Source: Escherichia phage AV125 | Direction: 5' to 3' (one strand) | Sequence record: OR352955.1 | DNA: 64,000 nucleotides | Part shown: positions 9,097 to 28,120 of the stretch, piece by piece | How the letters are laid out: every line of letters starts with the position of its first letter | How positions within the stretch are numbered: position 1 is the first letter of the stretch | Notes under the pieces: generated by a model | What the model was told of the DNA's origin: nothing | Database searches by the model: none | The model's input: only the letters and a program-made list of their open reading frames with translations | Program-made: the position numbers and the translations under genes

Positions 9097-9242
9097 AAAA
9101 CCTCCTCATAGTAAGGTAAAGCCTTGATCAGTTGTTCTGAAGTGCCATTTTGCACCCACGTAACACCCTTGTCAAGAGAAACATACCTTTTCTTATTGAT
9201 AAATTTACGGAGACAACCAGTGAACTTGTTTTTGTAGATCAT
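9093..9242 (-). CDS. small hypothetical protein (49 aa)
   Basis: Own translation MIYKNKFTGCLRKFINKKRYVSLDKGVTWVQNGTSEQLIKALPYYEEVL; start and stop both overlap neighbours. Confidence 0.35.
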   Translation of the reverse strand: MIYKNKFTGCLRKFINKKRYVSLDKGVTWVQNGTSEQLIKALPYYEEVL

Positions 9243-9682
9243 TTCTTCTTTCCTTTCTTTAATTTGTTGTGACCTTTACCCTTATAAAGCTTGTGATTAC
9301 GAGCAGACGGGTTATTTTGGTTCTCCAGTCGGCTAACAGGTGTATTCCAAAGGTTTCCTGCTACAAAAGATGCTGCCACAAGTTCTTCCAGGTATACAAA
9401 ATCCAAAACAGGTATCTTTGTTTCCCTCATCTCGCGTTCTACATTAGACAACACGCCTTCTTCCTTACTGTCTTCTTTTTCAATTACAGACCAACCCTCT
9501 TCCTGCCAAGCTTCCCCTCTGAACCAAGTTTCCATGTTATAACCTTGTTCGTCGAGAATAACACCATCTCGCATCTCAAACCATTCGCCACCACAAAAAT
9601 GGCGGTGCTCAACACGTCTACCTTCCTTCATTGCTTCTTTAGCTTCGGGCCAAGTCAGTTTGATGTTTTGGATGTTTTGCAT
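9239..9682 (-). CDS. hypothetical protein (147 aa, lysine-rich C-terminus)
   Basis: ORF track; first gene of minus-strand block. Confidence 0.55.
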   Translation of the reverse strand: MQNIQNIKLTWPEAKEAMKEGRRVEHRHFCGGEWFEMRDGVILDEQGYNMETWFRGEAWQEEGWSVIEKEDSKEEGVLSNVEREMRETKIPVLDFVYLEELVAASFVAGNLWNTPVSRLENQNNPSARNHKLYKGKGHNKLKKGKKK

Positions 9683-15303: not shown

Positions 15304-15483
15304 ATGGCACGTTTAGCAGATCATGAAATCTTTAAACCTATTCTGAACCACTATGATGAACTTAAAGCAGTGTTGGATTGTTATAGAGAGGATGAAGAAC
15401 GTTTGGAAGTCAATCTTAAGATAGTTCTGATGAAAGCTTTTCAAGACGGGCAAGCTAAAGTTTTAGAAGGCATGAAAAAATGA
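15304..15483 (+). CDS. hypothetical protein (59 aa)
   Basis: Track ORF 15268 shortened to ATG 15304 after AAGGAG. Confidence 0.4.
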   Translation: MARLADHEIFKPILNHYDELKAVLDCYREDEERLEVNLKIVLMKAFQDGQAKVLEGMKK

Positions 15484-16022
15484 GAATAACTGATGAATAT
15501 GTATTCTTCTTTTCACATAAAGATGTGTTTAGTAATTGGTATATTGCACCCTTTACAGAAACTGAACCAGGTTACAATGAGACTTTCTGTTGTGTTGAGC
15601 AATATATGATGTGGCGTAAGGCTTTGCTGTTCAAGGATCATGCGATTGCAGCAGCTATCCTTGATCACTCAACTATACGTGACAACGAGAGGAAACAAGC
15701 ATACTACAAACGTATGGGTCGAGCGGTATCTGGTTTTAATAATGATATGTGGGAAGAGAACCGTGAGCGTATTGTTATGCGAGGCTTATGCTTGAAATAT
15801 GTACAGAATCCAGATTTGTATGCAGACTTACACCTTTACCAATACAAAACGTTTGTTGAAGCAAGTCCTTACGATAAGGTTTACGGTATTGGAATGGGAA
15901 TGTATGAACCAGGGGTGCTAAACCCTGCTACCTGGAAAGGGCAGAATCTTTTAGGCAAATATCATAATAAACTGATCGAAATACTTTTCCCAGACAAAAT
16001 ACCGCAAAGACGATATTTGTGA
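15480..16022 (+). CDS. NADAR-family (YbiA-like) protein, putative ADP-ribose/N-glycoside hydrolase
   Basis: 180 aa; FFFS..SNW...PF...EQYMMWRKALLF.D....VMRGLCLKYVQNP.L...L..T....LVEASPYDKVYGIG pattern matches NADAR/YbiA fold as remembered. Confidence 0.6.
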   Translation: MRITDEYVFFFSHKDVFSNWYIAPFTETEPGYNETFCCVEQYMMWRKALLFKDHAIAAAILDHSTIRDNERKQAYYKRMGRAVSGFNNDMWEENRERIVMRGLCLKYVQNPDLYADLHLYQYKTFVEASPYDKVYGIGMGMYEPGVLNPATWKGQNLLGKYHNKLIEILFPDKIPQRRYL

Positions 16023-16265
16023 TATTTTAACTTTTTTCATTTTTAGAACAAAGGTGTCACTTTGTAGCACAGAAATAAGGCTCCTACAGCACCGTAGAGA
16101 GCCTGTTATTTTGTCCTATACAAACCCTTGTCTTTTTCAGTTTGCATCACTAAGATTCGATCTGAGTGGGTTCCTGAAGGTTTACCAATAAGATTAAAGG
16201 TTATATCAAATTCCCACTATCTTTTATCTCAAAAATCCCTCAAATTATTTAAACTTTTTAAGAAT

Positions 16266-16450
16266 TTACAAAAGTGAAAGTTGAAAACCAAAATTTAAAG
16301 TTTAGGAAAATTATCTTAAAATGTCAGATACAAAACAAAACTCAAAAGTCAAGGAAAATTTTAAAAATTTTGCGCGCCCACAGTATTTAAAGTTTTTTTG
16401 CTTTTACAAAAATGAAAGTACAAAAGCAAAATTTAAAGTTTACAAAAATT
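16266..16450. repeat. AT-rich direct repeats (iteron-like), 2 full copies of ~48 bp plus partial copy
   Basis: TTTACAAAAgTGAAAGT...CAAAATTTAAAGTTTAggAAAATT at 16266-16313 and 16403-16450; partial AAAGTCAAGGAAAATTTT at 16346-16364. Confidence 0.6.
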
Positions 16451-16465
16451 TTTATGCAGGTGAAA

Positions 16466-16580
16466 ATGAGAAGAGTTCTCATATGGAAATGCAAATGATA
16501 ATGATTCGCATTTAAGTTTATAAATGAGATTGATTCTTATTTAATAAGGTAAATGACAATCATTCTCATTTAGAGAATGA
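16466..16580. promoter_or_regulatory. cluster of operator-like inverted repeats built on half-site ATGAGAA/TTCTCAT
   Basis: ATGAGAA-gag-TTCTCAT (16466-16482); 27-bp near-palindrome AAATGCAAATGATAATGATTCGCATTT (16487-16513); CATTCTC-attta-GAGAATG (16561-16579). Confidence 0.5.
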
Positions 16581-16799
16581 CGCGCAGGGGCGGTGTTTGT
16601 CTCGCGCTCCCGTGTCCCCTCGCCATGTAATAAGAATAACAGATCCAGCCAGGAAAGCAAGCGATTATTTTATCTTTACATTTCTTTACAAATATATAGC
16701 ACCCAGCCTACCGGCGATCAACCTTCCAACCAGTGCCCCCTGGTATGTTAGCCCCGCCTTTACGCCGTGGGGTGGCGCTTCCTCTTCTGTATGTAAAAC

Positions 16800-16828
16800 A
16801 GTATAAGCCCGATCCCTGGGCTTGTCAA
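16800..16828 (-). promoter_or_regulatory. sigma70-type promoter on minus strand, no obvious downstream ORF
   Basis: rc reads TTGACA (16828-16823) - 17 nt - TATACT (16805-16800); reads leftward into GC-rich segment. Confidence 0.45.
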
Positions 16829-16830
16829 GA

Positions 16831-17097
16831 TTATTTTTTGTTTTCTTGCCAGGATAGGACACCTAACCAAAAATACATATCGCCCCGCGCCCCTGGTGGT
16901 ATCTTGCTTTCCCCGCCGCCACTGCAAGCCCATAGATAACCATTTGCGAACGTATCAAAATGATCTATCTCTTCCACCTTATGATCGCCCAGGTTGAGAA
17001 CGGTTTCAACCTTTAAGCCCGTTGCGCTTGCTACCTGGTGCACCGTGCCGCCTTGCCAGCCCAATGAGTGCATAAGGTGTAATGTAGTATTTGTCAT
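16831..17097 (-). CDS. small hypothetical protein (88 aa) inside a GC-rich insert, antisense to flanking genes
   Basis: ORF track; GC-rich codons (GGC, GCG, CAG) unlike surrounding AT-rich genes. Confidence 0.4.
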   Translation of the reverse strand: MTNTTLHLMHSLGWQGGTVHQVASATGLKVETVLNLGDHKVEEIDHFDTFANGYLWACSGGGESKIPPGARGDMYFWLGVLSWQENKK

Positions 17098-17205
17098 GAT
17101 ATCGCCCTTTCTTTGTTGTGCGCCCTGGTTGGCGCGGTAGAAAGATAATAGCCCTTTTCTTTATATATAGCAAGCAAAAAGAAAATAAAAAAGATTGAAA
17201 AATGG

Positions 17206-17263
17206 TTGACGTTAACCAGGCGGCGGCGTAGTATTCATCTTGTAGGGCGGCAATGGTGCCGCT
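17206..17263 (+). promoter_or_regulatory. early promoter + leader stem-loop cassette 1
   Basis: TTGACG 17206; -10 TAGTAT 17229; hairpin GCGGCA-atgg-TGCCGC 17246-17263. Confidence 0.55.
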
Positions 17264-17283
17264 CACTATTTGGAGTTAAGATC

Positions 17284-17481
17284 ATGGCAACATTGCACAT
17301 TGTGGCGAAAGCTGGACAAATCAACGTAGTGGTAAACGGTTTTACTGAGTTCAGTCACCCCCAGGATGATCATGAAACGGTTTTATCTTTCATTGATTCC
17401 CTGTTAGAAATGGGAGTCATTACAGAAGACCAGCACGCTACAAAATGCAAGCGCGTTAATCAAATTGCAGGAATAGAATAA
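17284..17481 (+). CDS. small early protein (65 aa)
   Basis: Start moved to ATG 17284 after GGAG; track start 17206 is TTG of -35 box. Confidence 0.5.
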   Translation: MATLHIVAKAGQINVVVNGFTEFSHPQDDHETVLSFIDSLLEMGVITEDQHATKCKRVNQIAGIE

Positions 17482-17487
17482 AAAGTA

Positions 17488-17547
17488 TTGACAACAAACA
17501 ACAACCTGATAAGATGTATCACATAGGGCGGCGGAATGGTCCACCGC
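17488..17547 (+). promoter_or_regulatory. early promoter + leader stem-loop cassette 2
   Basis: TTGACA 17488; TAAGAT 17510; hairpin GGCGGCGGA-atgg-TCCACCGC. Confidence 0.55.
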
Positions 17548-17572
17548 TCACAACAGAAGAGAGATTATCATC

Positions 17573-17845
17573 ATGGCATCATATAGCGCAACAATGATCG
17601 TAGCTGGCACCACTGGTAAACCTATGCGCGGTGGCGGATCTTTCGCTAATATCAATATTGACGGGCGTTTATCCCTGGACGCAGCGATCACCGTGGCGCG
17701 GGAAACATTTAAGAAAGAATGTAAATTCAATAAACAAGATTATCTCGGTTTTGCTATTGAAAAAACCGCGCGCTTTGTTGATTATAAAAGCCCGAAAATG
17801 GTTGACACTACATTAAAAGCGCAAGATGTAGCGTTTTTGTTTTAA
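17573..17845 (+). CDS. small early protein (90 aa)
   Basis: ORF track; AGAGAGA upstream. Confidence 0.5.
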   Translation: MASYSATMIVAGTTGKPMRGGGSFANINIDGRLSLDAAITVARETFKKECKFNKQDYLGFAIEKTARFVDYKSPKMVDTTLKAQDVAFLF

Positions 17846-17848
17846 GGC

Positions 17849-17904
17849 TTGACATTAACGAATAATTTGTTAATATGTTACATAAAGCGGGAATAGTTCC
17901 CGCT
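17849..17904 (+). promoter_or_regulatory. early promoter + leader stem-loop cassette 3
   Basis: TTGACA 17849; TAATAT 17871; hairpin GCGGGAA-tag-TTCCCGC. Confidence 0.55.
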
Positions 17905-17921
17905 ATTTGTAAGGTGGTAGA

Positions 17922-18179
17922 ATGTTTTACATCAAATTAAAAGGTCACGTGATCGCGTTCAAAGATAACGCTTTTTACAGATTAGCAAAATATGCGTTAA
18001 TACATCCCCACTATGTTTATATAAGGGGGCGTGATGAAATAAATATCTTTGATCAAACAACATGCGAGAACATCGAGATCCGCAAGGTTGGCGTACGTGA
18101 TTATCGTACATCTTTCTACCCTTGCAAGGATTCAGCAAGTCTTTTTAAAGTATGCCAATTGTTGAAAAAAGGTGGTTAA
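17922..18179 (+). CDS. small early protein (85 aa)
   Basis: ORF track. Confidence 0.5.
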   Translation: MFYIKLKGHVIAFKDNAFYRLAKYALIHPHYVYIRGRDEINIFDQTTCENIEIRKVGVRDYRTSFYPCKDSASLFKVCQLLKKGG

Positions 18180-18180
18180 T

Positions 18181-18738
18181 ATGGGCCGCGAATATGTGAT
18201 CCAGTCTTGGGTAAAACATGAAGCAGATGATCCGCGCATCATTCCCGATCATCTTATCGATGAATCCACGGGATATAGTGGTGAGCAAATAGGTAACAGA
18301 TTAGCACGTAGTAACGGCAACGTAAAAGCGCGTTATGTGCGCCCTGGCTGGCTGGCAAATGGTAACGCTGATTTATCCAGTGCGGAAGATGCGAGCGACG
18401 GCGCGAAAGATAATCCTTTGTACAAAGTTGATCCAGCTTTTCGTGTCCTGGATGAATACCCCAGCAAGATAGCGGCGCTCGATCAGGCCCTGGAAAGTAA
18501 GCGCATCACCTGGACCGCTTACAACATGGCAAAAAACGTACTTGATAGTAAATTGATTCAAGCTGAAAGAAAATTAGCCAAAATTGCAGCCATAGCCCAG
18601 GAGGAAGACGAGGAGACAACGGAAGAGGAAGAGTACGAAGAGATCCCGCCGTTGTTGTGTGTTGATGCTTTTCCTGATTATCAGCCGACAGAGGAAGAAA
18701 AAAGGATCGCACTAGAAAACTTTGAAAATAGTCTTTGA
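18181..18738 (+). CDS. hypothetical protein (185 aa), acidic C-terminal tail
   Basis: Track ORF 18172 (GTG) shortened to ATG 18181 after AAGGTGG. Confidence 0.5.
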   Translation: MGREYVIQSWVKHEADDPRIIPDHLIDESTGYSGEQIGNRLARSNGNVKARYVRPGWLANGNADLSSAEDASDGAKDNPLYKVDPAFRVLDEYPSKIAALDQALESKRITWTAYNMAKNVLDSKLIQAERKLAKIAAIAQEEDEETTEEEEYEEIPPLLCVDAFPDYQPTEEEKRIALENFENSL

Positions 18739-18791
18739 CATATCGCCGCCACTGGCATAATATTTACCACGTAGGGCGGCAATGGTGCCGC
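18735..18791 (+). promoter_or_regulatory. early promoter + leader stem-loop cassette 4
   Basis: TTGACA 18735; TAATAT 18758; hairpin GGGCGGCAATGGTGCCGC. Confidence 0.55.
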
Positions 18792-18820
18792 TCATAGTGA
18801 AATTATGCAAGAGGCTTACA

Positions 18821-18916
18821 ATGATTAATAAAGAAAATAGCTTGACGGTTGGAACGATTAACGCTATCATTCTAGCCGTTCCATTTTGGGTTGTAGTAGC
18901 GGCTATTATTTTCTAA
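18821..18916 (+). CDS. tiny hydrophobic peptide (31 aa)
   Basis: Own translation MINKENSLTVGTINAIILAVPFWVVVAAIIF after cassette 4. Confidence 0.3.
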   Translation: MINKENSLTVGTINAIILAVPFWVVVAAIIF

Positions 18917-18924
18917 AAATATTC

Positions 18925-18985
18925 TTGACAACGTTTTTTAATCTGATAAGATGTATCACATAGGGCGGCGGAATACTTCCCCGCC
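18925..18985 (+). promoter_or_regulatory. early promoter + leader stem-loop cassette 5
   Basis: TTGACA 18925; TAAGAT 18947; hairpin GGCGGCGGAATACTTCCCCGCC. Confidence 0.55.
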
Positions 18986-19006
18986 AAAACAAAAAAGGGT
19001 AACACA

Positions 19007-19369
19007 ATGAGCAAGCAAATCAATACTATCATGTTTAATCTGGTATCTTTCCGCGATGATATGAAAAATTTACCACGTGAAACGGTTGATATTCATGTTT
19101 CAGCTTATCGCGCCCTTATTGACATGTTACCGCTAAAACGTGATCAACATGCCGCTAATATGATGCTTAATGCTATGCTTAAAAAGATGATTCAAACGGA
19201 TCTTACTCTGGCGTATGAGTATCAAGGGCGCTTATATGCGACTTACAACAAAGCGGTACCTGGTCTGGGAAGTACCGAAGAGTTGCACGGCTTAAACCTG
19301 GATCAAAACACTTGGGATAGTATGCGCCGCGTTATGGTATGGGCCGAAAGCGGTAAAATTTACGAATAA
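19007..19369 (+). CDS. small early protein (120 aa)
   Basis: ORF track. Confidence 0.55.
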   Translation: MSKQINTIMFNLVSFRDDMKNLPRETVDIHVSAYRALIDMLPLKRDQHAANMMLNAMLKKMIQTDLTLAYEYQGRLYATYNKAVPGLGSTEELHGLNLDQNTWDSMRRVMVWAESGKIYE

Positions 19370-19375
19370 AAACGG

Positions 19376-19435
19376 TTGACACTGTTTAAAATGCTGGTAT
19401 AGTTTATCACATAGGGCGGGAAGTGGTTTCCCGCC
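19376..19435 (+). promoter_or_regulatory. early promoter + leader stem-loop cassette 6
   Basis: TTGACA 19376; TATAGT 19398; hairpin GGCGGGAA-gtggt-TTCCCGCC. Confidence 0.55.
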
Positions 19436-19457
19436 AACAATGAAAAAGGTTATCATC

Positions 19458-19823
19458 ATGGCTATTAATATTAATGTTTCCGCTTATGCTACCCTGGCTA
19501 ACACGGCTAAAATTGAATTATCCAGCATTGAGGCGGTGCATATTAGCGCCCGTCGCTGGTTTCAACAGTCCTACGGTAACACGTATTTTTCTTTAATGGT
19601 TGACGTTGAGATCGGCGGTAAACTGATCGAGGTGGTTAACGTTCCGTTTCAATATGGCTATGGTGATCATTTTGATACCGTCGCCCTGGAAGAATTTAGC
19701 AAGGTTATCAACCTTGAGGGCAAGGAATTTTCACGCGGCGCGTATCTTTCCCGTTTTTGCCGTGACAATGGGATCACTGTATACAGTCATGCAAGCGATG
19801 TTAAACGTAAAAAAGATCTATAA
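19458..19823 (+). CDS. small early protein (121 aa)
   Basis: Start moved to ATG 19458, the conserved atcatcATGgc context shared with other cassettes. Confidence 0.5.
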   Translation: MAININVSAYATLANTAKIELSSIEAVHISARRWFQQSYGNTYFSLMVDVEIGGKLIEVVNVPFQYGYGDHFDTVALEEFSKVINLEGKEFSRGAYLSRFCRDNGITVYSHASDVKRKKDL

Positions 19824-19829
19824 AAAGCA

Positions 19830-19888
19830 TTGACAGCACGAATAAAAAGAGTAAACTGTATTACATAGAGAGCGGGAACACTTCCCGC
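19830..19888 (+). promoter_or_regulatory. early promoter + leader stem-loop cassette 7
   Basis: TTGACA 19830; TAAACT 19852; hairpin GCGGGAA-cac-TTCCCGC. Confidence 0.55.
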
Positions 19889-19912
19889 CTCACTGAAAAA
19901 GAGAGAAAAATC

Positions 19913-20152
19913 ATGGCTAAATCTAAAATGTACAACGGTCACAAAAACAAAACTCATTGGAATGTAAGCCTGTGGATTAATAACGATGAGGGATTGTATC
20001 GGTTTGCATTGGGATTGATCAATGAGTGCGGTAATAAAGATCAGGCGGCTGATTTAATGTGCTACCGTTTGAAACAGGATGGAATCACTACAACGCCAGA
20101 CGGCTTTAAGTATAGTAAAACTGCAATCCGCGCCGCTATGGTTGGAATGTAA
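19913..20152 (+). CDS. small early protein (79 aa)
   Basis: ORF track. Confidence 0.5.
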   Translation: MAKSKMYNGHKNKTHWNVSLWINNDEGLYRFALGLINECGNKDQAADLMCYRLKQDGITTTPDGFKYSKTAIRAAMVGM

Positions 20153-20161
20153 TAAAAACAG

Positions 20162-20221
20162 TTGACAACGTTTAAAATTAGTGTAAGATGTATCACATAG
20201 GGCGGGAAGTGGTTTCCCGCC
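20162..20221 (+). promoter_or_regulatory. early promoter + leader stem-loop cassette 8
   Basis: TTGACA 20162; TAAGAT 20184; hairpin GGCGGGAAGTGGTTTCCCGCC. Confidence 0.55.
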
Positions 20222-20243
20222 AACAACAGAGAGATTAAAGATT

Positions 20244-20471
20244 ATGGCTATCAATATTGTTCGTGTATCCGGCACCGTTGGCAGTTCCCAGGTTGTAGCA
20301 GTTGTAACAAACAAAAAGATTAATGATGTATGTGAGATCTTGAATAAGTGGGCTATTGCTAATTTTGGGGAATATGCAAGCGTTGAGTACATCGAATCCT
20401 GCCAGGTGCCGACCATCAGCCTAACCGATCTCAACGTTGATCGCCTGTTATGCCTGGATGAATTAATCTGA
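20244..20471 (+). CDS. small early protein (75 aa)
   Basis: ORF track. Confidence 0.5.
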   Translation: MAINIVRVSGTVGSSQVVAVVTNKKINDVCEILNKWAIANFGEYASVEYIESCQVPTISLTDLNVDRLLCLDELI

Positions 20472-20480
20472 AAAAGATTG

Positions 20481-20536
20481 TTGACACGGGAAAGAAAAAG
20501 AGTAAACTGTATTACGTAGGGCGGCAATAGTGCCGC
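20481..20536 (+). promoter_or_regulatory. early promoter + leader stem-loop cassette 9
   Basis: TTGACA 20481; TAAACT 20503; hairpin GGCGGCA-atag-TGCCGC. Confidence 0.55.
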
Positions 20537-20561
20537 TCACAACAGAAGAGAGATTATCACG

Positions 20562-20777
20562 ATGGCTAATATCCGTACACTGTTAAAAAATGCAAGTCAA
20601 GTTTTATTTTCAGATGACGAGTATTTCAACAAAGACATTACAGGCGTGAAAAATTTAAAAGACGTGAAGGATGTTATCGGTATCCGTGGATCTTTACGTA
20701 AAGGTGATATATACGGTAACAAGGTGCAATATAAACTGTCAAAAGATTATGATTTTACTTTGACAATTATTTCATAA
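20562..20777 (+). CDS. small early protein (71 aa)
   Basis: ORF track. Confidence 0.5.
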   Translation: MANIRTLLKNASQVLFSDDEYFNKDITGVKNLKDVKDVIGIRGSLRKGDIYGNKVQYKLSKDYDFTLTIIS

Positions 20778-20783
20778 AACCGC

Positions 20784-20845
20784 TTGCAATCTTAATAAAA
20801 TAAAGTAAACTGTATTACATCAAGGCGGCGGAATGGTCCACCGCC
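20784..20845 (+). promoter_or_regulatory. early promoter + leader stem-loop cassette 10
   Basis: TTGCAA 20784; TAAACT 20806; hairpin GGCGGCGGAATGGTCCACCGCC. Confidence 0.5.
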
Positions 20846-20869
20846 TAACAAAGAGAAGAGGAAAATATT

Positions 20870-21037
20870 ATGATCACTTTCGCTACCCGTGAAGCCGCTC
20901 GCAACGTTGCCCGTAAAGTTAACGCCGCCAACCTGGGCGCTACACTTAAAGCCCCGGTAAAAGATGCATCAGGCGCGTGGATCTTCCCTGGTCTGCGTCA
21001 CGCTGATAAGCTAGGCACTTTAAGCCTTAAAAAATAA
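20870..21037 (+). CDS. small early protein (55 aa)
   Basis: Own translation MITFATREAARNVARKVNAANLGATLKAPVKDASGAWIFPGLRHADKLGTLSLKK; not in ORF track (below 60 aa). Confidence 0.4.
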   Translation: MITFATREAARNVARKVNAANLGATLKAPVKDASGAWIFPGLRHADKLGTLSLKK

Positions 21038-21040
21038 TCG

Positions 21041-21078
21041 TTGACTTTTCGTTATAGCGCCTTATAATGGGCGCTATA
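21041..21078 (+). promoter_or_regulatory. early promoter cassette 11, variant in which the stem-loop encloses the -10 box
   Basis: TTGACT 21041; TATAAT 21063 lies in loop of TAGCGCC...GGCGCTA hairpin. Confidence 0.45.
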
Positions 21079-21111
21079 GAGAAGAGAAACCACTACTAAC
21101 AAGGAAACATC

Positions 21112-21333
21112 ATGATCACTTTCGCTATTGTCGCCGTTGTCGCTGGTCAGGTTTACGTAAACGAGACATTTACTACAGAAGACAAGGCCGCAGGAGATAT
21201 AACCGCCGTTTACAACGAGTGCAAGGCAGTAGAAAGGATGTTAGCGCCTTGTATGCTAATGAGTGAACGCCAGGACGGGATAACAGTATTTACTAACATT
21301 GAAACAGGGTACCAAATGGTAGTAACAAAATAA
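21112..21333 (+). CDS. small early protein (73 aa)
   Basis: ORF track; N-terminus MITFA shared with 20870 ORF. Confidence 0.5.
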   Translation: MITFAIVAVVAGQVYVNETFTTEDKAAGDITAVYNECKAVERMLAPCMLMSERQDGITVFTNIETGYQMVVTK

Positions 21334-21336
21334 AGC

Positions 21337-21393
21337 TTGACACGGATTTAATTTTCAGTAAACTGTTACACGTAGGGCGGGAATAGTTCCCGC
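21337..21393 (+). promoter_or_regulatory. early promoter + leader stem-loop cassette 12
   Basis: TTGACA 21337; TAAACT 21359; hairpin GCGGGAATAGTTCCCGC. Confidence 0.55.
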
Positions 21394-21412
21394 TCAAAAA
21401 GAGAGAAAGACC

Positions 21413-21766
21413 ATGAAAGCACAAAATGCAATTAAAGAGTACATCCTTGCCGCTATCGATTTTAATGATTACGGTATTACAACCGAAAAAGAGAAGATCG
21501 CGGAATTGATGCGCCGTTTTAATTCCGAGTACTGGTACCCTGATAACCAATCACGTTTTAATTATAGTATTGTTAAAGCACTTGCATCATGGTTACAAGG
21601 TTTGCCATCAGATATCAATATCGCTTTCGAATATTGGGAAATTGATCGCCTGTTAACATCCTGGGGATACATTAAAGAGAATAGCCGCGATGATAAAATC
21701 CAACGAGAAAGGGAAAATTATTGGCTTTATATTGCAGGCGTGATCCTTGCTTGCTCTTATGAATGA
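21413..21766 (+). CDS. small early protein (117 aa)
   Basis: ORF track. Confidence 0.55.
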   Translation: MKAQNAIKEYILAAIDFNDYGITTEKEKIAELMRRFNSEYWYPDNQSRFNYSIVKALASWLQGLPSDINIAFEYWEIDRLLTSWGYIKENSRDDKIQRERENYWLYIAGVILACSYE

Positions 21767-21772
21767 TAAACC

Positions 21773-21826
21773 TTGACAATTTTACAAAACAGTTTAAATT
21801 AACAATATAGCGGCAATGGTGCCGCT
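21773..21826 (+). promoter_or_regulatory. early promoter + leader stem-loop cassette 13
   Basis: TTGACA 21773; TAAATT near 21795; hairpin GCGGCAATGGTGCCGC. Confidence 0.5.
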
Positions 21827-21845
21827 CATATGAAGAGGAAACAAA

Positions 21846-21992
21846 ATGAATACATCTAATCGCGCAGAAAAAATTCAATCTTCCAAGATCCGCAAGGCCT
21901 GGAACGAGGAAGTGATCCGCAAAGGCGACAAGCGTAATAAAACAAAGCGCGGGAAGAGTGACAAATATAATTGGATGGATTTAGAGGATTAA
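21846..21992 (+). CDS. small basic protein (48 aa)
   Basis: Own translation MNTSNRAEKIQSSKIRKAWNEEVIRKGDKRNKTKRGKSDKYNWMDLED. Confidence 0.35.
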   Translation: MNTSNRAEKIQSSKIRKAWNEEVIRKGDKRNKTKRGKSDKYNWMDLED

Positions 21993-22000
21993 CATAACAA

Positions 22001-22026
22001 GGGCGCATCAAGCGCCCTTTCTTTTT
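22001..22026 (+). terminator. intrinsic terminator (copy 1 of a repeated terminator)
   Basis: GGGCGC-atcaa-GCGCCC then TTTCTTTTT; identical hairpin at 26912. Confidence 0.65.
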
Positions 22027-22047
22027 ACATGTAGAGGATAAACAAAA

Positions 22048-22233
22048 ATGACTTTAAACGAGCTTAAAACAGCCTACAACGCAACATTAAAAATAGCTGT
22101 GCGTTACCGTGATGCGTACGGTTTTATCGCGCAGGGCGTGATCCTGGGCTTTTCTGACGATGGTTTGATCTATGTTGATGCACATCACAACAAGGTTAAA
22201 CCGGAAAACGTTATCAATATAAAATATCTTTAA
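22048..22233 (+). CDS. small early protein (61 aa)
   Basis: ORF track. Confidence 0.45.
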   Translation: MTLNELKTAYNATLKIAVRYRDAYGFIAQGVILGFSDDGLIYVDAHHNKVKPENVINIKYL

Positions 22234-22239
22234 AAGTGG

Positions 22240-22298
22240 TTGACACCATAACCGGACCTGTTAAACTGTATTACATCAGGCGGGGAATAGTTCCCCAC
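22240..22298 (+). promoter_or_regulatory. early promoter + leader stem-loop cassette 14
   Basis: TTGACA 22240; TAAACT 22262; hairpin GGGGAA-tag-TTCCCC. Confidence 0.55.
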
Positions 22299-22318
22299 CA
22301 TACAAAAAGGTAAATATT

Positions 22319-22525
22319 ATGATCACCGCAAAACAAGAAAAAATCATTATCGACGTTGCAGCCGTTGCCGCTATTGCTATTATTGGATCTTATTATGATA
22401 CCCGTTTCCCGTCGGCTATGCATGAGATCGCCGCCGTTGCATCAGTTGGCGTGCTGTTTTACGTTGGTAAACGCTATTTATCACCAATGATTAACAAGCT
22501 GACACCGTGGAAAAATAAAGGTTGA
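22319..22525 (+). CDS. small membrane protein (68 aa)
   Basis: ORF track; hydrophobic IIIDVAAVAAIAIIGSYY. Confidence 0.5.
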   Translation: MITAKQEKIIIDVAAVAAIAIIGSYYDTRFPSAMHEIAAVASVGVLFYVGKRYLSPMINKLTPWKNKG

Positions 22526-22576
22526 TCCTGTTTTACATTGTGTTATAGTTATCGTGTAGGGCGGCAATGGTGCCGC
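22522..22576 (+). promoter_or_regulatory. early promoter + leader stem-loop cassette 15
   Basis: TTGATC 22522; TATAGT 22544; hairpin GGCGGCAATGGTGCCGC. Confidence 0.5.
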
Positions 22577-22596
22577 GCCCCTTTGAGGATGCAATC

Positions 22597-22881
22597 ATGA
22601 GTAAAGCTAACACCGTGCTAATGTTTTCCCTGATTAATGATCTCGCTTACTTGTCCAACATGACGCAGGAGGGTAACACATTAACGGCAACATTCACCAA
22701 TAAGCTTGACCGAGTGATCATCATCTCACTGAAAACAGTTAGTAAAGGCTTTTACTCGTTAGCTTATCATTGGATCACCGATACCGATGAGACAAGCCAG
22801 GACTATAGCGCCCCTTTTCCTGAATCAATGGCACGGGAGATCATCGCCGCCGTTGTAAATGATGGTTTGTTTACTGCATAA
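22597..22881 (+). CDS. small early protein (94 aa)
   Basis: Start moved to ATG 22597 after GAGGATG; track start 22567 lies in the hairpin loop. Confidence 0.5.
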   Translation: MSKANTVLMFSLINDLAYLSNMTQEGNTLTATFTNKLDRVIIISLKTVSKGFYSLAYHWITDTDETSQDYSAPFPESMAREIIAAVVNDGLFTA

Positions 22882-22898
22882 ATAATTTAGAAAAAGGC

Positions 22899-22955
22899 TT
22901 GCAATCATTTTGAGATAGTGTATATTTAATTCATAGGGCGGCGGGAATAGTTCCC
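22899..22955 (+). promoter_or_regulatory. early promoter + leader stem-loop cassette 16
   Basis: TTGCAA 22899; TATATT 22921; hairpin GGGAA-tag-TTCCC. Confidence 0.5.
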
Positions 22956-22978
22956 AAAGCAAATGAGAGGATTACACG

Positions 22979-23098
22979 ATGAGCAAGTACACAGTAGAAT
23001 ACACGGTAGAAAATCCGGCAGTATCCGAAGGTAAAAAGATGACATTTGCCATCAGTATAATCGCTTTCGTTGTCACTATCTTATCAATCATCTTATAA
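22979..23098 (+). CDS. tiny membrane peptide (39 aa)
   Basis: Own translation MSKYTVEYTVENPAVSEGKKMTFAISIIAFVVTILSIIL after GAGAGGA. Confidence 0.35.
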   Translation: MSKYTVEYTVENPAVSEGKKMTFAISIIAFVVTILSIIL

Positions 23099-23108
23099 GG
23101 TGCACACC

Positions 23109-23270
23109 ATGAAAATAGCAGACATTATCAAAGAGATCGCCCTTGCCGCTGGCGTTGAGGTCGAGGAAGTGATCGCGCTCAATCTTACAGAAAACGATCT
23201 GCGCAACTATGAAGCGGAAAGCGTGAAAGCAAGCGGCGCGGTCCTGGTATATGATCCGGCTAACAAGTAA
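23109..23270 (+). CDS. small early protein (53 aa)
   Basis: Start at ATG 23109; track start 23070 would lie inside the preceding peptide gene. Confidence 0.4.
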   Translation: MKIADIIKEIALAAGVEVEEVIALNLTENDLRNYEAESVKASGAVLVYDPANK

Positions 23271-23390
23271 GGGGATAACATGAATCCGAAAGATATGCAA
23301 GCATGGAAAGGGTACGACGATCTAAGCGCCTTGCGCAATAAGTCAAGCCGTAACCTTAGACGGTTGGAAGCAAAGAAAAAGAAAAAATAG

Positions 23391-23446
23391 TTTGACAAGT
23401 CCGCGTAGTCTGGTAATATGTATCTTGTAGGGCGGCAATGGTGCCG
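23391..23446 (+). promoter_or_regulatory. early promoter + leader stem-loop cassette 17
   Basis: TTGACA 23391; TAATAT 23413; hairpin GGGCGGCAATGGTGCCGC. Confidence 0.55.
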
Positions 23447-23468
23447 CTCACAAGAAGAGAGAAAAATC

Positions 23469-23753
23469 ATGAAAATCACAAAAAGCCTGACTAATTATGC
23501 AGCACGTCGCGGATTATGTTTAACTGTTGAAAACTTAGGGAAAGAAGACTTTTTGTGTTTTTGGGAGCTTGAAAATGATTGCGAGTGGATGTTTTCTTAT
23601 TCTATCTGCGAAGATCAAAACGGTTGTTTGTTAACTTGGCGCGGTAATATCTATTTACCGGAAGAAATTAAAGAAGAGTTACCAGGTACGATCATGACAG
23701 AGAGACAGCTTAAGGAAGTGATCAATTTTGTAGGGCAAAACATTAAAAAATAA
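23469..23753 (+). CDS. small early protein (94 aa), cysteine/tryptophan-rich
   Basis: Start moved to ATG 23469; track start 23418 lies in the hairpin loop. Confidence 0.5.
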   Translation: MKITKSLTNYAARRGLCLTVENLGKEDFLCFWELENDCEWMFSYSICEDQNGCLLTWRGNIYLPEEIKEELPGTIMTERQLKEVINFVGQNIKK

Positions 23754-23754
23754 T

Positions 23755-23816
23755 TTGACAACAGGCAAACAACGTAGTAAAGTTTATTACATAGAGCGGC
23801 GGAATGGTCCACCGCT
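23755..23816 (+). promoter_or_regulatory. early promoter + leader stem-loop cassette 18
   Basis: TTGACA 23755; TAAAGT 23778; hairpin GCGGCGGAATGGTCCACCGC. Confidence 0.55.
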
Positions 23817-23838
23817 CACAACAGAAGAGAAACAAATC

Positions 23839-24009
23839 ATGATCCCGACTATGTTTTATGTATCGCGCAAAGGTCACAATATTTTTTGGTCTGAAGATTT
23901 AAATGAAGCTATGACGTTTGCCCGTGATCGTGTTGCTATCGGTGGCGTTAACATCACCGTAACCGATGAAAATGGCATTGAATACTATAACGGCAACGAT
24001 GAAGAATAA
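23839..24009 (+). CDS. small early protein (56 aa)
   Basis: Start ATG 23839 (MIPTMFYVSRKGHNIFW...); track start 23755 lies in promoter. Confidence 0.45.
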   Translation: MIPTMFYVSRKGHNIFWSEDLNEAMTFARDRVAIGGVNITVTDENGIEYYNGNDEE

Positions 24010-24015
24010 TTAATG

Positions 24016-24038
24016 AGGCGGGGGAGTATTCCCCGCCG
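24016..24038 (+). promoter_or_regulatory. intercistronic leader stem-loop with no promoter upstream
   Basis: GGCGGGGGA-gtat-TCCCCGCC immediately before RBS of 24057 gene. Confidence 0.5.
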
Positions 24039-24056
24039 TCAATAAAGAGGTAAATC

Positions 24057-24326
24057 ATGAAAATATCATTGGACGTTGCAATCAAGGCCATCGAATCCGG
24101 TTACATCCTGGTAAAAGATGATAAGGCTAAAACCGTGCACCACGTTAACAAAGAAACAGGCGAAAGCATGATCACATATAAAGCCGCCTACTTTCTCCAA
24201 TCAGTAGCAGATCCGCGCGTACAACGCCAGGTTACAGCGGCTATTGCTAAAAAATTATGTGCTTTACAGGGTATAAGTTTTAACGAGATCGCCCCGTGTT
24301 TTGACTGGTCGAGCTTGAAAAAATAG
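24057..24326 (+). CDS. small early protein (89 aa)
   Basis: ORF track. Confidence 0.5.
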   Translation: MKISLDVAIKAIESGYILVKDDKAKTVHHVNKETGESMITYKAAYFLQSVADPRVQRQVTAAIAKKLCALQGISFNEIAPCFDWSSLKK

Positions 24327-24327
24327 T

Positions 24328-24389
24328 TTGACAACAATTATAAATCGGGTAGAATGTATTTCGTAGGGCGGGGCAATAAGGCAACGCCC
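24328..24389 (+). promoter_or_regulatory. early promoter + variant leader stem-loop cassette 19
   Basis: TTGACA 24328; TAGAAT 24350; hairpin GGGCG...CGCCC. Confidence 0.5.
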
Positions 24390-24407
24390 ATTAATGAGGG
24401 TAGAATC

Positions 24408-24512
24408 ATGTTAGAGAAAATTTTCACGGTTGTAATAGTGGGCCTGGCGTTATCGGTTGGAGGGGTTGCAACTATGGCTAACATGATCCTATCTTCCCAC
24501 GGTATCGGCTAA
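24408..24512 (+). CDS. tiny membrane peptide (34 aa)
   Basis: Own translation MLEKIFTVVIVGLALSVGGVATMANMILSSHGIG. Confidence 0.3.
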   Translation: MLEKIFTVVIVGLALSVGGVATMANMILSSHGIG

Positions 24513-24522
24513 GGTGAAACAA

Positions 24523-24738
24523 ATGATCACGAATAAGACAGGTAAAACGGAATTTTTACGCGGCTTGCAAGTTGGTAAACCTGAGATCTGGCATTGTACT
24601 AAATCCGCGCATAATGAAATGAAAGATTTTACCGCTACTTTACAACGTGTTAAAATATCTATCACACAGAAAAAAGCCTTGTTAGTAGTAGAAAACGAGA
24701 TCCCGCAAACTATTATTATTGTCGAGCGTACAGCATGA
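24523..24738 (+). CDS. small early protein (71 aa)
   Basis: Track ORF 24514 (GTG) shortened to ATG 24523 after AAGGTG. Confidence 0.45.
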   Translation: MITNKTGKTEFLRGLQVGKPEIWHCTKSAHNEMKDFTATLQRVKISITQKKALLVVENEIPQTIIIVERTA

Positions 24739-25121
24739 AAACAGAAATCATTATTGAAATCATCAACGGTTATAAAGAAGCCTTTATTTTTGCTGAATCA
24801 GCAAGGGATCATGAAGGTAATTTTATTGAAAACTTAGACGATTATGATTTTTCTCCTAGCGCGGACGAACGGATCGCCCAGGATGTAACAGCCTTTATTA
24901 ATGCTAATCTTGCCGCTATCTCTGAGGCAATGAGCGACGGCGCAACAGCCAACCAGATCGGGAATGATTTACATTTTACCCGTAACGGTCACGGCGTAGG
25001 CTTTTGGGATCGCCCTGAAATATACACCACTAACACGGCGAACCGCCTAACCAATGCAGCTAAGTTTATGCCGAACGTGTCGGCTTACATTGGTGAAGAT
25101 AATTTGATTTATATTGAATAA
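24735..25121 (+). CDS. small early protein (128 aa)
   Basis: ATGA overlap with upstream gene. Confidence 0.55.
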   Translation: MKTEIIIEIINGYKEAFIFAESARDHEGNFIENLDDYDFSPSADERIAQDVTAFINANLAAISEAMSDGATANQIGNDLHFTRNGHGVGFWDRPEIYTTNTANRLTNAAKFMPNVSAYIGEDNLIYIE

Positions 25122-25127
25122 AAAGTA

Positions 25128-25183
25128 TTGACACAGATCGCCAGTGTGCTAATATTTACCACGTAGGGCGGCAATGGTGCCGC
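25128..25183 (+). promoter_or_regulatory. early promoter + leader stem-loop cassette 20
   Basis: TTGACA 25128; TAATAT 25150; hairpin GGGCGGCAATGGTGCCGCC. Confidence 0.55.
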
Positions 25184-25202
25184 CGATAATGAGGAAAGTA
25201 AA

Positions 25203-25502
25203 ATGGAAACTATCGCTATTGTTACCGTAGAAAAACTGGTTGTTGGTGATGTATTCGCGTTAATGGTGCCTAACAGCAGCAAGCTGGGCGCTTATGAAGT
25301 AATGGATCATAAAAATGAATCATTTGGCGACGGTTGCACAATGGCGGTAAAATCTTTAAAGGATGGAATCATCCGCCAGGCTAACTGGCACAAAGGGAAT
25401 CAAGTCGGTTTAATATCAGCTAATTTCTTGCCAGAAGAGCAAACGTTAGACCAACTATCAGGCGGTAAGACGTTAGCCGAACTACTGGAAACAGCGATCT
25501 AA
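25203..25502 (+). CDS. small early protein (99 aa)
   Basis: ORF track. Confidence 0.55.
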   Translation: METIAIVTVEKLVVGDVFALMVPNSSKLGAYEVMDHKNESFGDGCTMAVKSLKDGIIRQANWHKGNQVGLISANFLPEEQTLDQLSGGKTLAELLETAI

Positions 25503-25510
25503 TCAACAAA

Positions 25511-25526
25511 GGGGCGGCAACGCCCC
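25511..25526 (+). promoter_or_regulatory. intercistronic GNRA-type stem-loop
   Basis: GGGGCG-gcaa-CGCCCC, no T-run; precedes RBS of 25547 gene. Confidence 0.45.
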
Positions 25527-25546
25527 ACATCAGAAAGGAAAAGATT

Positions 25547-25783
25547 ATGAGTATTGCAACAGTATTAAACGCCGTTAAAACCGCTGAATCATCCGGCTTG
25601 CATGTTGAGCTTATAGATCAACCAGGTGGCGATCTCCTTGTCCAGGTTTACCCGCCGAAAGTAGGGGATGATTATTATTGGGCTTATTCTGATACGTTCG
25701 AACAAGTAGACACGAAAGCGATCACGGCTTTTATTTTAAAAGCTATTGAAGAAAATAACTTTCATCATAACATCAATCAATAA
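25547..25783 (+). CDS. small early protein (78 aa)
   Basis: ORF track. Confidence 0.5.
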   Translation: MSIATVLNAVKTAESSGLHVELIDQPGGDLLVQVYPPKVGDDYYWAYSDTFEQVDTKAITAFILKAIEENNFHHNINQ

Positions 25784-25792
25784 ACCATAAGC

Positions 25793-25808
25793 GGGGCGGT
25801 AACGCCCC
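25793..25808 (+). promoter_or_regulatory. intercistronic GNRA-type stem-loop
   Basis: GGGGCG-gtaa-CGCCCC, no T-run; precedes 25838 gene. Confidence 0.45.
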
Positions 25809-25837
25809 ATTAAACGCAATAGGAAGAGGATAGACGC

Positions 25838-26128
25838 ATGAAAAAGATGATCGCAGTAGTTGCCCTGGTTGTTGGTATTAACGCGCCTGTACTGGCTAAT
25901 GAGTTGCCAGAATCCATCACGCTAACCGATATCAACGCAATAAACCGGATCGGCGTTAATTATCGCCTATGCCTTGCCGCTAAAACTTTCCAGGACGGCA
26001 CGACAGAATACCACGGATTCGAGGGTATCCGCTGCGGTGAGCTTGCACGCGACCTTAAGGAAGATCCAGACCTTGAGGCCATACCGATGACCGTAAACGG
26101 TAAAGCTTACGTAAACCGCCAACAATGA
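25838..26128 (+). CDS. predicted secreted protein (96 aa)
   Basis: Signal-peptide-like MKKMIAVVALVVGINAPVLA. Confidence 0.55.
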   Translation: MKKMIAVVALVVGINAPVLANELPESITLTDINAINRIGVNYRLCLAAKTFQDGTTEYHGFEGIRCGELARDLKEDPDLEAIPMTVNGKAYVNRQQ

Positions 26129-26259
26129 GAAAGGTAATCATCACAATGGGGATCATAGTAGCGACACTGGCGCTTATCCCCTTCATGGTTGAATATGTGC
26201 TGATCAGTGTTGTCCTGGTAGTCAGTGACCTATTGGAAACGGTTGGCAACTGGTTTTAA
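26125..26259 (+). CDS. tiny membrane peptide (44 aa)
   Basis: Own translation MRKVIITMGIIVATLALIPFMVEYVLISVVLVVSDLLETVGNWF; ATGA overlap. Confidence 0.35.
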   Translation: MRKVIITMGIIVATLALIPFMVEYVLISVVLVVSDLLETVGNWF

Positions 26260-26436
26260 AAATAAGAAAAACAGGACTTGTTTTTGTTCTGTTTTTTGTT
26301 ATACTTATTGAACGGGCGGCACCTGGAAGCAGGGGAAGATAATCACCGGAAGACCCCGCTATATATTGATAACTAACGCCTATCAAACAACAAAACATCA
26401 AAGGAATAAACTATCAAATCTTTACAATTCTACCTA

Positions 26437-26480
26437 TTGACACCGGATCACGCTTACACTATTATTTATCACGTAGGGCA
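26437..26480 (+). promoter_or_regulatory. early promoter with conserved leader start but no stem-loop (cassette 21)
   Basis: TTGACA 26437; TATTAT 26460; TATCACGTAGGGC leader. Confidence 0.5.
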
Positions 26481-26511
26481 AACAATTTTAAACGGTAAAC
26501 GAGGAATCACC

Positions 26512-26895
26512 ATGAGCAATATCATCAACCTGGCAGCGACTGTAAACGGTAAAGACTTTAACGGCGCTGTAGACCGTGATCCTATGTGGTGCTTGTCAGT
26601 GTTTAAAGGCGATCTGGTTGAAGTTAGAACAACCGAAGGTTATAGCGATGATTATAAATGCGAGATTCATTTACATAATTGGTACACGGGTAAAACTTAT
26701 GCGCTGAATCACGCGTTTATCGGGAAAATTGAATATCGCGAGATGATCGACGATGAAACGGGGCAAGATTTTAGCGAAAACGTTTATATTCGTTCCGAGA
26801 CATTAGCCGAACGTTTGATCGAGAAAATGAAAGCAAAAAATAAAATTAATTTATCTCATTGGATTGATATAACAAATGATCCGGCTTATCAGTAA
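26512..26895 (+). CDS. hypothetical protein (127 aa)
   Basis: Start moved to ATG 26512 after GAGGAA; track start 26437 is the TTG of the -35 box. Confidence 0.55.
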   Translation: MSNIINLAATVNGKDFNGAVDRDPMWCLSVFKGDLVEVRTTEGYSDDYKCEIHLHNWYTGKTYALNHAFIGKIEYREMIDDETGQDFSENVYIRSETLAERLIEKMKAKNKINLSHWIDITNDPAYQ

Positions 26896-26911
26896 ATAAC
26901 ATTTCATACCA

Positions 26912-26937
26912 GGGCGCATCAAGCGCCCTTTCTTTTT
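26912..26937 (+). terminator. intrinsic terminator (copy 2 of repeated terminator)
   Basis: GGGCGC-atcaa-GCGCCC then TTTCTTTTT, identical to 22001-22026. Confidence 0.65.
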
Positions 26938-26999
26938 GCCCGAATAATGTTGATAGCTTTCGCCTATGAAAAACCGACACAGAACAAAACTGAATAAAT

Positions 27000-27420: not shown

Positions 27421-27505
27421 TGCCATAATAGTGACTGAATGAAATCATTACAAAACGAATCATTCCAAGGATCATCATTAGCACGCTACGCCGGACACGT
27501 AGCGA

Positions 27506-28091: not shown

Positions 28092-28120
28092 ATACGAATG
28101 ATAATTATTCTCATTCGTAT
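28092..28120. promoter_or_regulatory. operator-like inverted repeat sharing the ATGAGAA/TTCTCAT half-site
   Basis: ATACGAATGA-taattattc-TCATTCGTAT; related AATCATTCTCAT at 27924-27935. Confidence 0.45.

Follow-up and report, generated by a model that had tools for sequence, protein, structure and literature searches.

A conserved non-coding control region of phAPEC8-like phages with Fur-box-like palindromes and a candidate leftward RNA gene

The control region described here occupies positions 16023–17283 of a 64,000-nucleotide stretch of Escherichia phage AV125 (sequence record OR352955.1), which we call the window. This DNA belongs to the genus Phapecoctavirus (subfamily Stephanstirmvirinae); the phage is a phAPEC8-like myophage of E. 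coli, ~150 kb in size. The sequence surrounding the control region (window 15400–17900) was 99.9% identical to phage vB_EcoM-Ro121lw, and 66 phage records covered at least 80% of this query. The region is 1.26 kb long and is flanked on one side by a NADAR gene (15480–16022; Pfam PF08719) and on the other by an array of small plus-strand early genes, which begin at 17284 and are each preceded by a TTGACA-type promoter. It contains AT-rich repeats, four palindromes that resemble the operators of the host protein Fur, a GC-rich segment with a conserved core, a leftward promoter, and a gene for an 88-residue protein (Table 1). An earlier sequence-only reading of the window had proposed a composite non-coding control region at this locus, and all of the features that it named were present at or near their assigned places, beyond chance.

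Table 1. Features of the control region in map order; positions are those of the window
Feature	Position	Strand	Details
Intrinsic terminator hairpin	16078–16104	+	AGGCTCCTACAGCACCGTAGAGAGCCT then GTTATTTTG; closes the upstream operon, including the NADAR gene
AT-rich direct-repeat block	16241–16452	none	two 72-nt copies and a 34-nt partial copy; 22.7% G+C
Four Fur-box-like 21-bp palindromes, AAATGAGAAT-N-ATTCTCATTT	16464–84, 16493–513, 16522–42, 16551–71	none	one family
GAAT motif, then imperfect GC-rich hairpin around GGTGTTTGTCTC	16574–16631	none	GAAT invariant; hairpin stems differ between lineages
Direct repeat TCTTTAC-N3-TCTTTACAAA	16673–16692	none	most lineages; first copy degenerate in three
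5′ part of putative leftward non-coding RNA	16711–16793	−	ACAGAAGAGGAAG, two hairpins, purine-rich UGGAAGGUUGAUCGCCGG
Sigma-70 early-class promoter	16800–16845	−	TTGACA (16828–16823), 17-bp spacer, TATACT (16805–16800), A-rich upstream element
Gene for conserved 88-residue all-helical protein	16831–17097	−	PHROG 19316, E 2e-59
Candidate promoter of the 88-residue protein gene, TTGCTA-17-TATTAT	17145–17173	−	consensus match only
First rightward early promoter, TTGACG-17-TAGTAT, and 5′-UTR (untranslated region) hairpin GGGCGGCAATGGTGCCGCTC	17206–17283	+	precedes ATG at 17284

The four palindromes lay within 108 bp (16464–16571) and recurred with an exact 29-bp period. The sequence-only reading had recognized this family, as inverted repeats built on ATGAGAA/TTCTCAT, and had counted three members of it; we found four, each 21 bp long. 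Matches to TGAGAATNATTCTCA with two or fewer mismatches occurred six times in the 64-kb window compared with 0.53 expected, a count reached in none of 100 shuffled sequences, and all six matches fell in the two large non-coding regions of the window. In Enterobacteriaceae, the Fur operator is a 19-bp Fur box, GATAATGATAATCATTATC, which in its 7-1-7 form reads TGATAATNATTATCA or tGATAATnATTATCa. The inner 15 bp of the phage boxes, TGAgAAT-N-ATTcTCA, departed from the 7-1-7 box tGATAATnATTATCa by one change per arm, and the 7-1-7 cores agreed with TGATAATNATTATCA at 12 of 14 positions and with the classical GATAATGATAATCATTATC at 13–15 of 19 positions. What had been noted earlier as a Fur-box-like core proved to be a much stronger match in comparison with the E. 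coli ryhB operator, AATGAGAATGATTATTATT, to which boxes 2, 3, and 4 were identical at 16/19, 17/19, and 17/19 positions, respectively. The ryhB operator scores 25.2 bits, and a gel shift has been reported for it (Chen et al., 2007; PMC2189734). Box 2 contained overlapping Fur-box matches at 16491 and 16497, 6 bp apart, and extra conserved sequence (AAATG...CATTT) flanked the boxes. From these matches, we infer that the array is a set of putative operators of host Fur.

Similar arrays were present in other phage groups. Certrevirus phages have four boxes, the last three of which are spaced by 29 bp, and the same 29-bp phasing was found in the arrays of Seunavirus, in which phage 4MG carries a perfect TGATAATCATTATCA that agrees with the 7-1-7 consensus at 14 of 14 positions. 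Justusliebigvirus-like contigs have four sites with agreement at 12–13 of 14 positions, and Fur-like arrays also turned up in rV5-like phages, at the injection-stop region in T5-like phages, and in a 329-bp terminal repeat described below. The 50-bp unit that contains boxes 3 and 4 (16522–16571) was in the forward orientation in the window and in phAPEC8 and was inverted in Schickermooser, nieznany, and tuntematon. Such an inversion polymorphism between palindromic arms would be expected of protein-binding sites that are symmetric and have inverted repeats at their flanks. In Vequintavirus magaca (positions 3030–3300 of the compared stretch), two tandem modules, each with a Fur box and a GC hairpin bearing CCGGTG(A/G)TTGTCTC, adjoined the leftward promoter. 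BLAST searches of E. coli with the box array gave insignificant matches only, these sites being too short for the sensitivity of BLAST. Full-text literature searches of open-access papers and preprints found no paper linking Fur with these phages.

The GC-rich segment (16574–17140) follows the array. As the sequence-only reading had noted, it differs from the rest of the window, although the difference is moderate (50.3% G+C compared with 39.2% window-wide; G–C skew −0.13). The whole control region was at least 93% identical within the genus Phapecoctavirus, and window 16359–17260 was ~85% identical in Justusliebigvirus-like phages. A core (~16522–16797) had 70–75% identity in Seunavirus (4MG, PVP-SE1), Certrevirus (phiTE, CR3), and Mydovirus-like Klebsiella phages of the Vequintavirinae. 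In all four of the records that we inspected (4MG, phiTE, CR3, P8734), the core lay in a 0.8–1-kb stretch without an annotated gene, just 5′ of the early genes, and scans of IMG/VR and metagenomes added 25 contigs of the same architecture together with one chance match. Lineages differed in the core by indels of 1, 4, and 6 nt, and the core is therefore non-coding. The plus-strand open reading frame (ORF) annotated over it (phAPEC8_00257) was rejected as spurious, based upon its low-complexity translation, a leucine start, a frameshift in Schickermooser, and the core indels that are not multiples of three; Schickermooser_00256/257 are spurious annotations of the same kind.

Within the core, the distance from the last Fur box to a GGTG sequence was fixed, with no indels in any lineage. 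This sequence begins a conserved motif, GGTG(A/T)TTGTCTC, in the imperfect GC-rich hairpin 3′ of the last box, the stem sequences of which were lineage specific. After the TCTTTAC-N3-TCTTTACAAA repeat comes an 80-nt block that was nearly invariant where present and was absent from the genus Vequintavirus. The PVP-SE1-type hairpin beside the Fur boxes had a 12–13-nt identity, (A)TTGTCTCGCGAT, with the discriminator/+1 region of ryhB. A mimic or sponge of RyhB was considered and rejected, as the similarities were short (GCGATCA, and the ATTGTCTCGCGAT that the PVP-SE1-type hairpin has in common with the −10/+1 region of ryhB) and there was no extended complementarity. A looser pattern scan for diverged cores returned mostly chance matches in GC-rich contigs and was discarded.

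The best sigma-70 match in the region, TTGACA-17-TATACT on the minus strand (11/12), is under selection and has no ORF downstream, the latter in agreement with the sequence-only reading. A promoter was present at the same position in 30/30 compared rows, with a match of 9–12/12 and at least seven different GC-rich spacers of 17–18 bp. The −35 element read TTGACA, TTGCAA, or TTGACG; the −10 element read TATACT, TATATT, TATAAT, CATAAT, TATAGT, AATAAT, or CATACT; and an A/T-rich element lay upstream in most lineages. The Certrevirus early-promoter consensus, AAAA-N-TGTTGAC-N-TATAAT (PMC7344957), is of the same class. The promoter spacer is a GC-rich hairpin, which with its T-run may also terminate the mRNA of the 88-residue protein gene. 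In Raoultella phage Ro1 (MG250486; 6300–7045 of the compared stretch), a gene for an HNH homing endonuclease (PHROG 953, E 8e-79) lay within the core at CCGGCGAT, in the minus orientation directly after the promoter and the 5′ core and with its own ribosome-binding site, and a diverged second copy of the promoter and 5′ core restored the insertion junction. In Klebsiella phage P8734, the diverged allele was the sole copy (1215–1330 of the compared stretch). Plus-strand GC skew was negative over the GC-rich segment, and it had the same sign over those gene blocks of the window that lie on the minus strand. Because the promoter is conserved, the HNH gene has the same orientation, and the skew is negative, a leftward transcript with a predicted start near 16792 is likely, and this putative RNA may extend to about 16575.

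Pairing in the core favors the minus strand. The 5′ part of the putative RNA can form a hairpin (CGCC/GGCG) with a CCCC loop that pairs with a downstream GGGG, followed by a second hairpin (ACCAG/CTGGT), and the pseudoknot loops of 1, 2, and 7 A-rich nucleotides fit an H-type fold in the minus orientation only. Over 32 sequences, 95% of the cells in the pairing counts were paired, and 2 of 13 pairs had changed on both sides, from CG to AU in the pseudoknot stem and from AU to GC flanking the second hairpin; 0 of 500 shuffles had as high a score. In the diverged allele of Ro1 and P8734, the second hairpin was rebuilt from other sequence as ATAGC/GCTAT. Two further variants, CUCC/GGGG in 4MG and a G-U pair in P8734, can pair only as minus-strand RNA. 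Folding energies of three segments on both strands gave no signal below shuffled sequence (mean z −0.8 to +0.1), an Rfam scan of the window gave no match at the gathering score and chance-level matches only at E up to 10, and scans for tRNA and tmRNA found none. This evidence, which is modest, suggests a structured minus-strand RNA.

Other candidate functions for this DNA did not hold up. Minus-strand GCCGGTAG resembles GGCGGTAG, the ops element of RfaH, but the key T is a G in phiTE-type sequences. A Shine-Dalgarno-like GGAAGGUG with a small ORF had no conserved start codon, and this segment was missing in the variant allele. A pseudo-ToxI mimic was discarded, as the core-bearing stretch of phiTE, when read through, had no ToxI-like sequence and the AT-rich repeats of the window are neither tandem nor near-identical. 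Homology of 16023–17283 to the ~2-kb intergenic region in which the relative Bas54 tolerates no transposon insertions could not be established; in Vequintavirus magaca, the genes that flank the homologous stretch lie on one and the same strand.

The 88-residue antisense ORF named in the sequence-only reading was found by tblastn in 151 phage records, with 100% protein identity where the DNA was ~85% identical and with homologs down to 35–48% identity in Shigella, Klebsiella, and Vibrio phages. In a further comparison of the protein, homologs extended down to ~45%. Judged by this sequence conservation, it is a genuine conserved phage gene that was missed in several records. The N-terminal 36 residues were almost invariant and gave a weak helix-turn-helix-like match at the sequence level. 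The predicted structure of the protein had a pLDDT of 94, and fold searches with it gave no match, including no DNA-binding match.

At the early-gene side of the region, the phAPEC8 record annotates a promoter at the first rightward early promoter, and the first early gene matches PHROG 23268. A conserved 5′-UTR hairpin, TAGGGCGGC..AATGGT..CCGCTCAC, follows early promoters at 17235–17266 and 17516–17548 and probably overlaps the 'phage promoter' motif found by PHIRE in phAPEC8. At the other side, a run that is T-rich on both strands follows the terminator at 16078–16104, to which the terminator annotated in the phAPEC8 record (3678–3704 of its compared stretch) corresponds. Among other records, the N-terminus of phiTE_079 seems to be annotated ~50 residues too long. 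The features of OY757067 (tRNAs, HNH) seem offset from the sequence because ARAGORN finds no tRNA there, and this annotation was not used.

Tentatively, and at somewhat less than even odds, we explain these observations by a boundary and control region that host Fur would operate, joined to an early leftward non-coding RNA. The region would have three working parts: the four Fur operators; a leftward RNA gene, in which a strong host-type early promoter would read toward the Fur boxes and the 5′ part of the transcript would contain a small pseudoknot and a hairpin; and a small protein gene on the same strand, the 88-residue protein gene, placed back-to-back with the first rightward early promoter. 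At entry, host RNA polymerase would start from the leftward promoter and from the rightward early promoters, and iron-loaded Fur on the box array would decide if transcription crosses the boundary in either direction. In the leftward direction, Fur would gate RNA reading into the AT-rich repeats and the upstream operon; in the rightward direction, it would gate starts within and upstream of the boxes. Early phage expression would thereby be coupled to the iron status of the host, and the boxes of accumulating phage DNA copies would titrate Fur. The published Fur titration assay exploits this principle, by which multicopy Fur boxes titrate Fur (cited in PMC2189734).

Several results weigh against a Fur-operated boundary with a leftward RNA. 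First, the boxes have G in place of the Fur-consensus T (TGAGAAT), and a different protein with a similar site may therefore bind instead. Second, no conserved promoter was clearly overlapped by the boxes. The overlapping candidates in the window were weak (TTTACA-17-GAAAAT, ending at 16467, and GTAAAT-18-GAGAAT at 16549–16578), including the latter, which in other genera reads TTGAAT-18-CAGAAT. Third, the folding energy of the core was no better than that of shuffles on either strand (mean z −0.2 to +0.1), RNAalifold found no compensatory pairs on the plus strand, and the covariation consists of two pairs among related sequences, which a few recombination events, and not independent changes, may have produced. 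Fourth, the core is nearly invariant over ~100 bp, which would be unusual if it were a simple regulatory RNA and could equally reflect a DNA site. Finally, our literature searches found no transcriptome paper for these phages.

A transcription-activated replication origin is an alternative that we consider unlikely. In such an origin, the leftward G-rich transcript would form an R-loop or primer, the AT-rich block would unwind, the lineage-specific repeats would bind a phage initiator, and Fur would be accessory or architectural. Origins that combine a promoter with an unwinding element include those of ColE1 RNA II, T4 oriF/oriG, and the T7 primary origin, and the layout at this locus is of that kind, with the promoter at 16828, a G-rich RNA strand (skew −0.13), and a 220-bp direct-repeat block of 22.7% G+C. 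The sequence-only reading had noticed these direct repeats and a partial copy, which are present as two 72-nt copies (16241–16312 and 16379–16450; 82% identical) and a 34-nt sub-unit that occurs three times (16281, 16329, and 16419). With 2.5 copies at 74–82% identity and its low G+C content, the block is a candidate unwinding region, and it includes several weak plus-strand promoter-like sites, such as TTTACA-18-CAAAAT. The AT-rich repeats were confined to Phapecoctavirus; at the equivalent place, other lineages such as phiTE and magaca have different, GGTCTCGATC-type iterons. Lineage-specific iterons are typical of initiator sites, with GGTCTCGATC repeated ~7 times in phiTE and CTCGATC-type copies in magaca and Ro1. 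Strong conservation of primary sequence without a folding-energy signal would also fit conserved sequence blocks, and the replication origin of rV5-like phages is not known (PMC3606486).

Other results argue against an origin. There was no DnaA box with one or fewer mismatches in 16023–17283, and the window-wide count of such boxes equaled the chance expectation. No recognizable initiator gene was adjacent, the 88-residue neighbor having no fold match. GC skew tracked transcription only, and the skew check for an origin gave nothing informative in the window. Fur-like boxes were present without the core in the terminal repeat and in a second non-coding region, and a general regulatory motif therefore fits better than a part of an origin. 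Vequintavirus, moreover, lacks the 3′ core altogether. As a separate observation, GATC-containing iterons (GGTCTCGATC, TTCTCGATCG, and TACTCGATCT) lie upstream of the Fur boxes of Vequintavirinae, in the place taken by the AT-rich repeats here; in the compared stretches, iterons were at 1640–1900 in phiTE, 5930–6030 in Ro1, and 2750–2900 in magaca.

The position of the array relative to the virion ends bears on another alternative. The terminal repeat of Schickermooser is 328 bp according to Korf et al. (PMC6563267), and we found an exact 329-bp repeat at both ends of the Schickermooser record, which maps to window 27844–28172. Window position 28172 is therefore the physical right end, the window is circularly rearranged relative to virion DNA, and the Fur-like array is ~11.6 kb from that end, or ~7.7% of 151 kb. 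Only the early-gene array (17284–26895) and a second ORF-free stretch (26896–28456) lie between the Fur-like array and the right end, and 16023–17283 is thus the inner boundary of a terminal early block. The second ORF-free stretch, which separates the early-gene array from the next gene block, has 34% G+C and A/C-rich aacaacaaac runs, and it contains strong Fur-like sites at 27146, 27920, and 28099, two of the three being inside the 329-bp terminal repeat.

One could imagine, with a small chance of being right, that this boundary serves DNA entry as in T5-like phages, with the right-terminal ~11.6 kb entering first and transfer pausing at the palindromes, to which a protein already present in the host, such as Fur, would bind. 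Window 16487–16541 was 84–87% identical over 55 nt to T5-like phages, within their left terminal repeat. In the T5-like phage chee24 (120,622 bp), five Fur-like sites at 9154–9656 are followed by a GC hairpin and a T-run, and these sites are Davison's Repeat Region 3, a candidate injection-stop signal (10.1101/866236). The shear point of T5 first-step transfer is at 9618, 7.9% of the genome, and DnaA, not Fur, has been invoked there (Davison, 10.1101/866236); this point is within the range of the Fur-like sites of chee24, and the array described here is at a similar ~7.7% from the right end. In both phage groups, moreover, small early genes with strong host-type promoters lie between the end and the array. 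The arrays would then mark an entry boundary common to T5-like and phAPEC8-like phages, with the terminal ~8% delivered or expressed first and a stop bound by Fur, a proposal to which we likewise assign a low probability. Against it, no report describes two-step injection in these myoviruses, and phiTE and PVP-SE1, in which the same array is present, have been described as circularly permuted (PMC3475682). In addition, 16023–17283 lacks the paired DnaA boxes of T5, and the shared sequence could reflect convergence on a site for one host factor.

We are equally doubtful that the boxes merely resemble Fur boxes and are operators of a phage-encoded regulator, for example the 88-residue protein, in a self-contained repressor switch of the kind that the sequence-only reading had suggested. 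Their preference for TGAGAAT over TGATAAT and their conserved AAATG...CATTT flanks would suit a regulator of this type, as would the near-invariant N-terminus of the 88-residue protein with its weak helix-turn-helix-like match. The same boxes, however, are present in T5-like, Seunavirus, and Mydovirus phages, where an unrelated gene occupies the equivalent position (in Ro1, one for a DUF7170 protein), and a shared host factor is therefore more economical; the fold searches also gave the 88-residue protein no DNA-binding match. Finally, a recently acquired foreign GC-rich module, which the sequence-only reading had suggested and which a G+C content of 50% compared with 39% for the window would favor, or a set of chance features, is highly improbable and is refuted by comparison with relatives, as the segment is at the same position in every Phapecoctavirus record and ~85% identical in Justusliebigvirus-like phages, its core is in the same place in a second subfamily, the core has no match in E. 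coli genomes, and a search of one genome per species in 100,044 species found it in a single 4-kb contig of a metagenome-assembled genome only. Conservation at this position in relatives was the observation that the sequence-only reading itself had set against acquisition, which therefore fails.

These observations matter in several respects. Near-consensus host Fur operator arrays lie in the biggest non-coding regions of three groups of virulent enterobacterial phages, the phAPEC8-, rV5-, and T5-like phages. If Fur binds them, then lytic phages would read or manipulate the iron status of the host at the start of infection, which would be relevant to the iron-limited gut and to phage therapy. 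The core is important enough to have become the target of a homing endonuclease and is a candidate for a new phage RNA or DNA element. The parallel with the T5 injection-stop region bears on a 50-year-old question, and if the arrays do mark a shared entry boundary, the host factor still missing from the T5 injection-stop signal would be Fur and not DnaA. For annotation, the spurious plus-strand ORF can be removed and the missed 88-residue protein gene added in several records.

Comparison with known systems places these features in context. Like Enterobacteriaceae Fur operators, such as that of the ryhB promoter, the phage array has palindromic 7-1-7 cores in clustered sites. It differs from host operators in being carried by virulent phage genomes, in its 29-bp phasing instead of the 3- or 6-bp overlaps of host clusters, and in usually having G at arm position 4, where the host has T. 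Among phage non-coding RNAs with pseudoknots, such as pseudo-ToxI of phiTE and the T4 gene 32 leader, the putative leftward RNA is alike in having a short H-type candidate near the 5′ end of the transcript, and phiTE, the source of pseudo-ToxI, also carries the core. Unlike RNAs of the pseudo-ToxI type, it lacks ToxI similarity and tandem repeats, is not followed by a gene in most lineages, and belongs to no Rfam family. As in T4 oriF/oriG, the T7 primary origin, and ColE1 RNA II, a promoter would send a G-rich transcript toward AT-rich repeats, but the distance here is ~330 nt, and Fur boxes lie in between. The T5 Repeat Region 3, or injection-stop signal (iss), has AAATGAGAAT-N-ATTATCATT palindromes followed by a GC-rich hairpin, as here, and in both cases a large non-coding region ~8% of the genome from an end bounds the early genes. 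T5 differs in its paired DnaA boxes, its nine DRD repeats, and its terminal repeat of 10 kb. All three are missing from 16023–17283, which instead has the leftward promoter and the conserved core.

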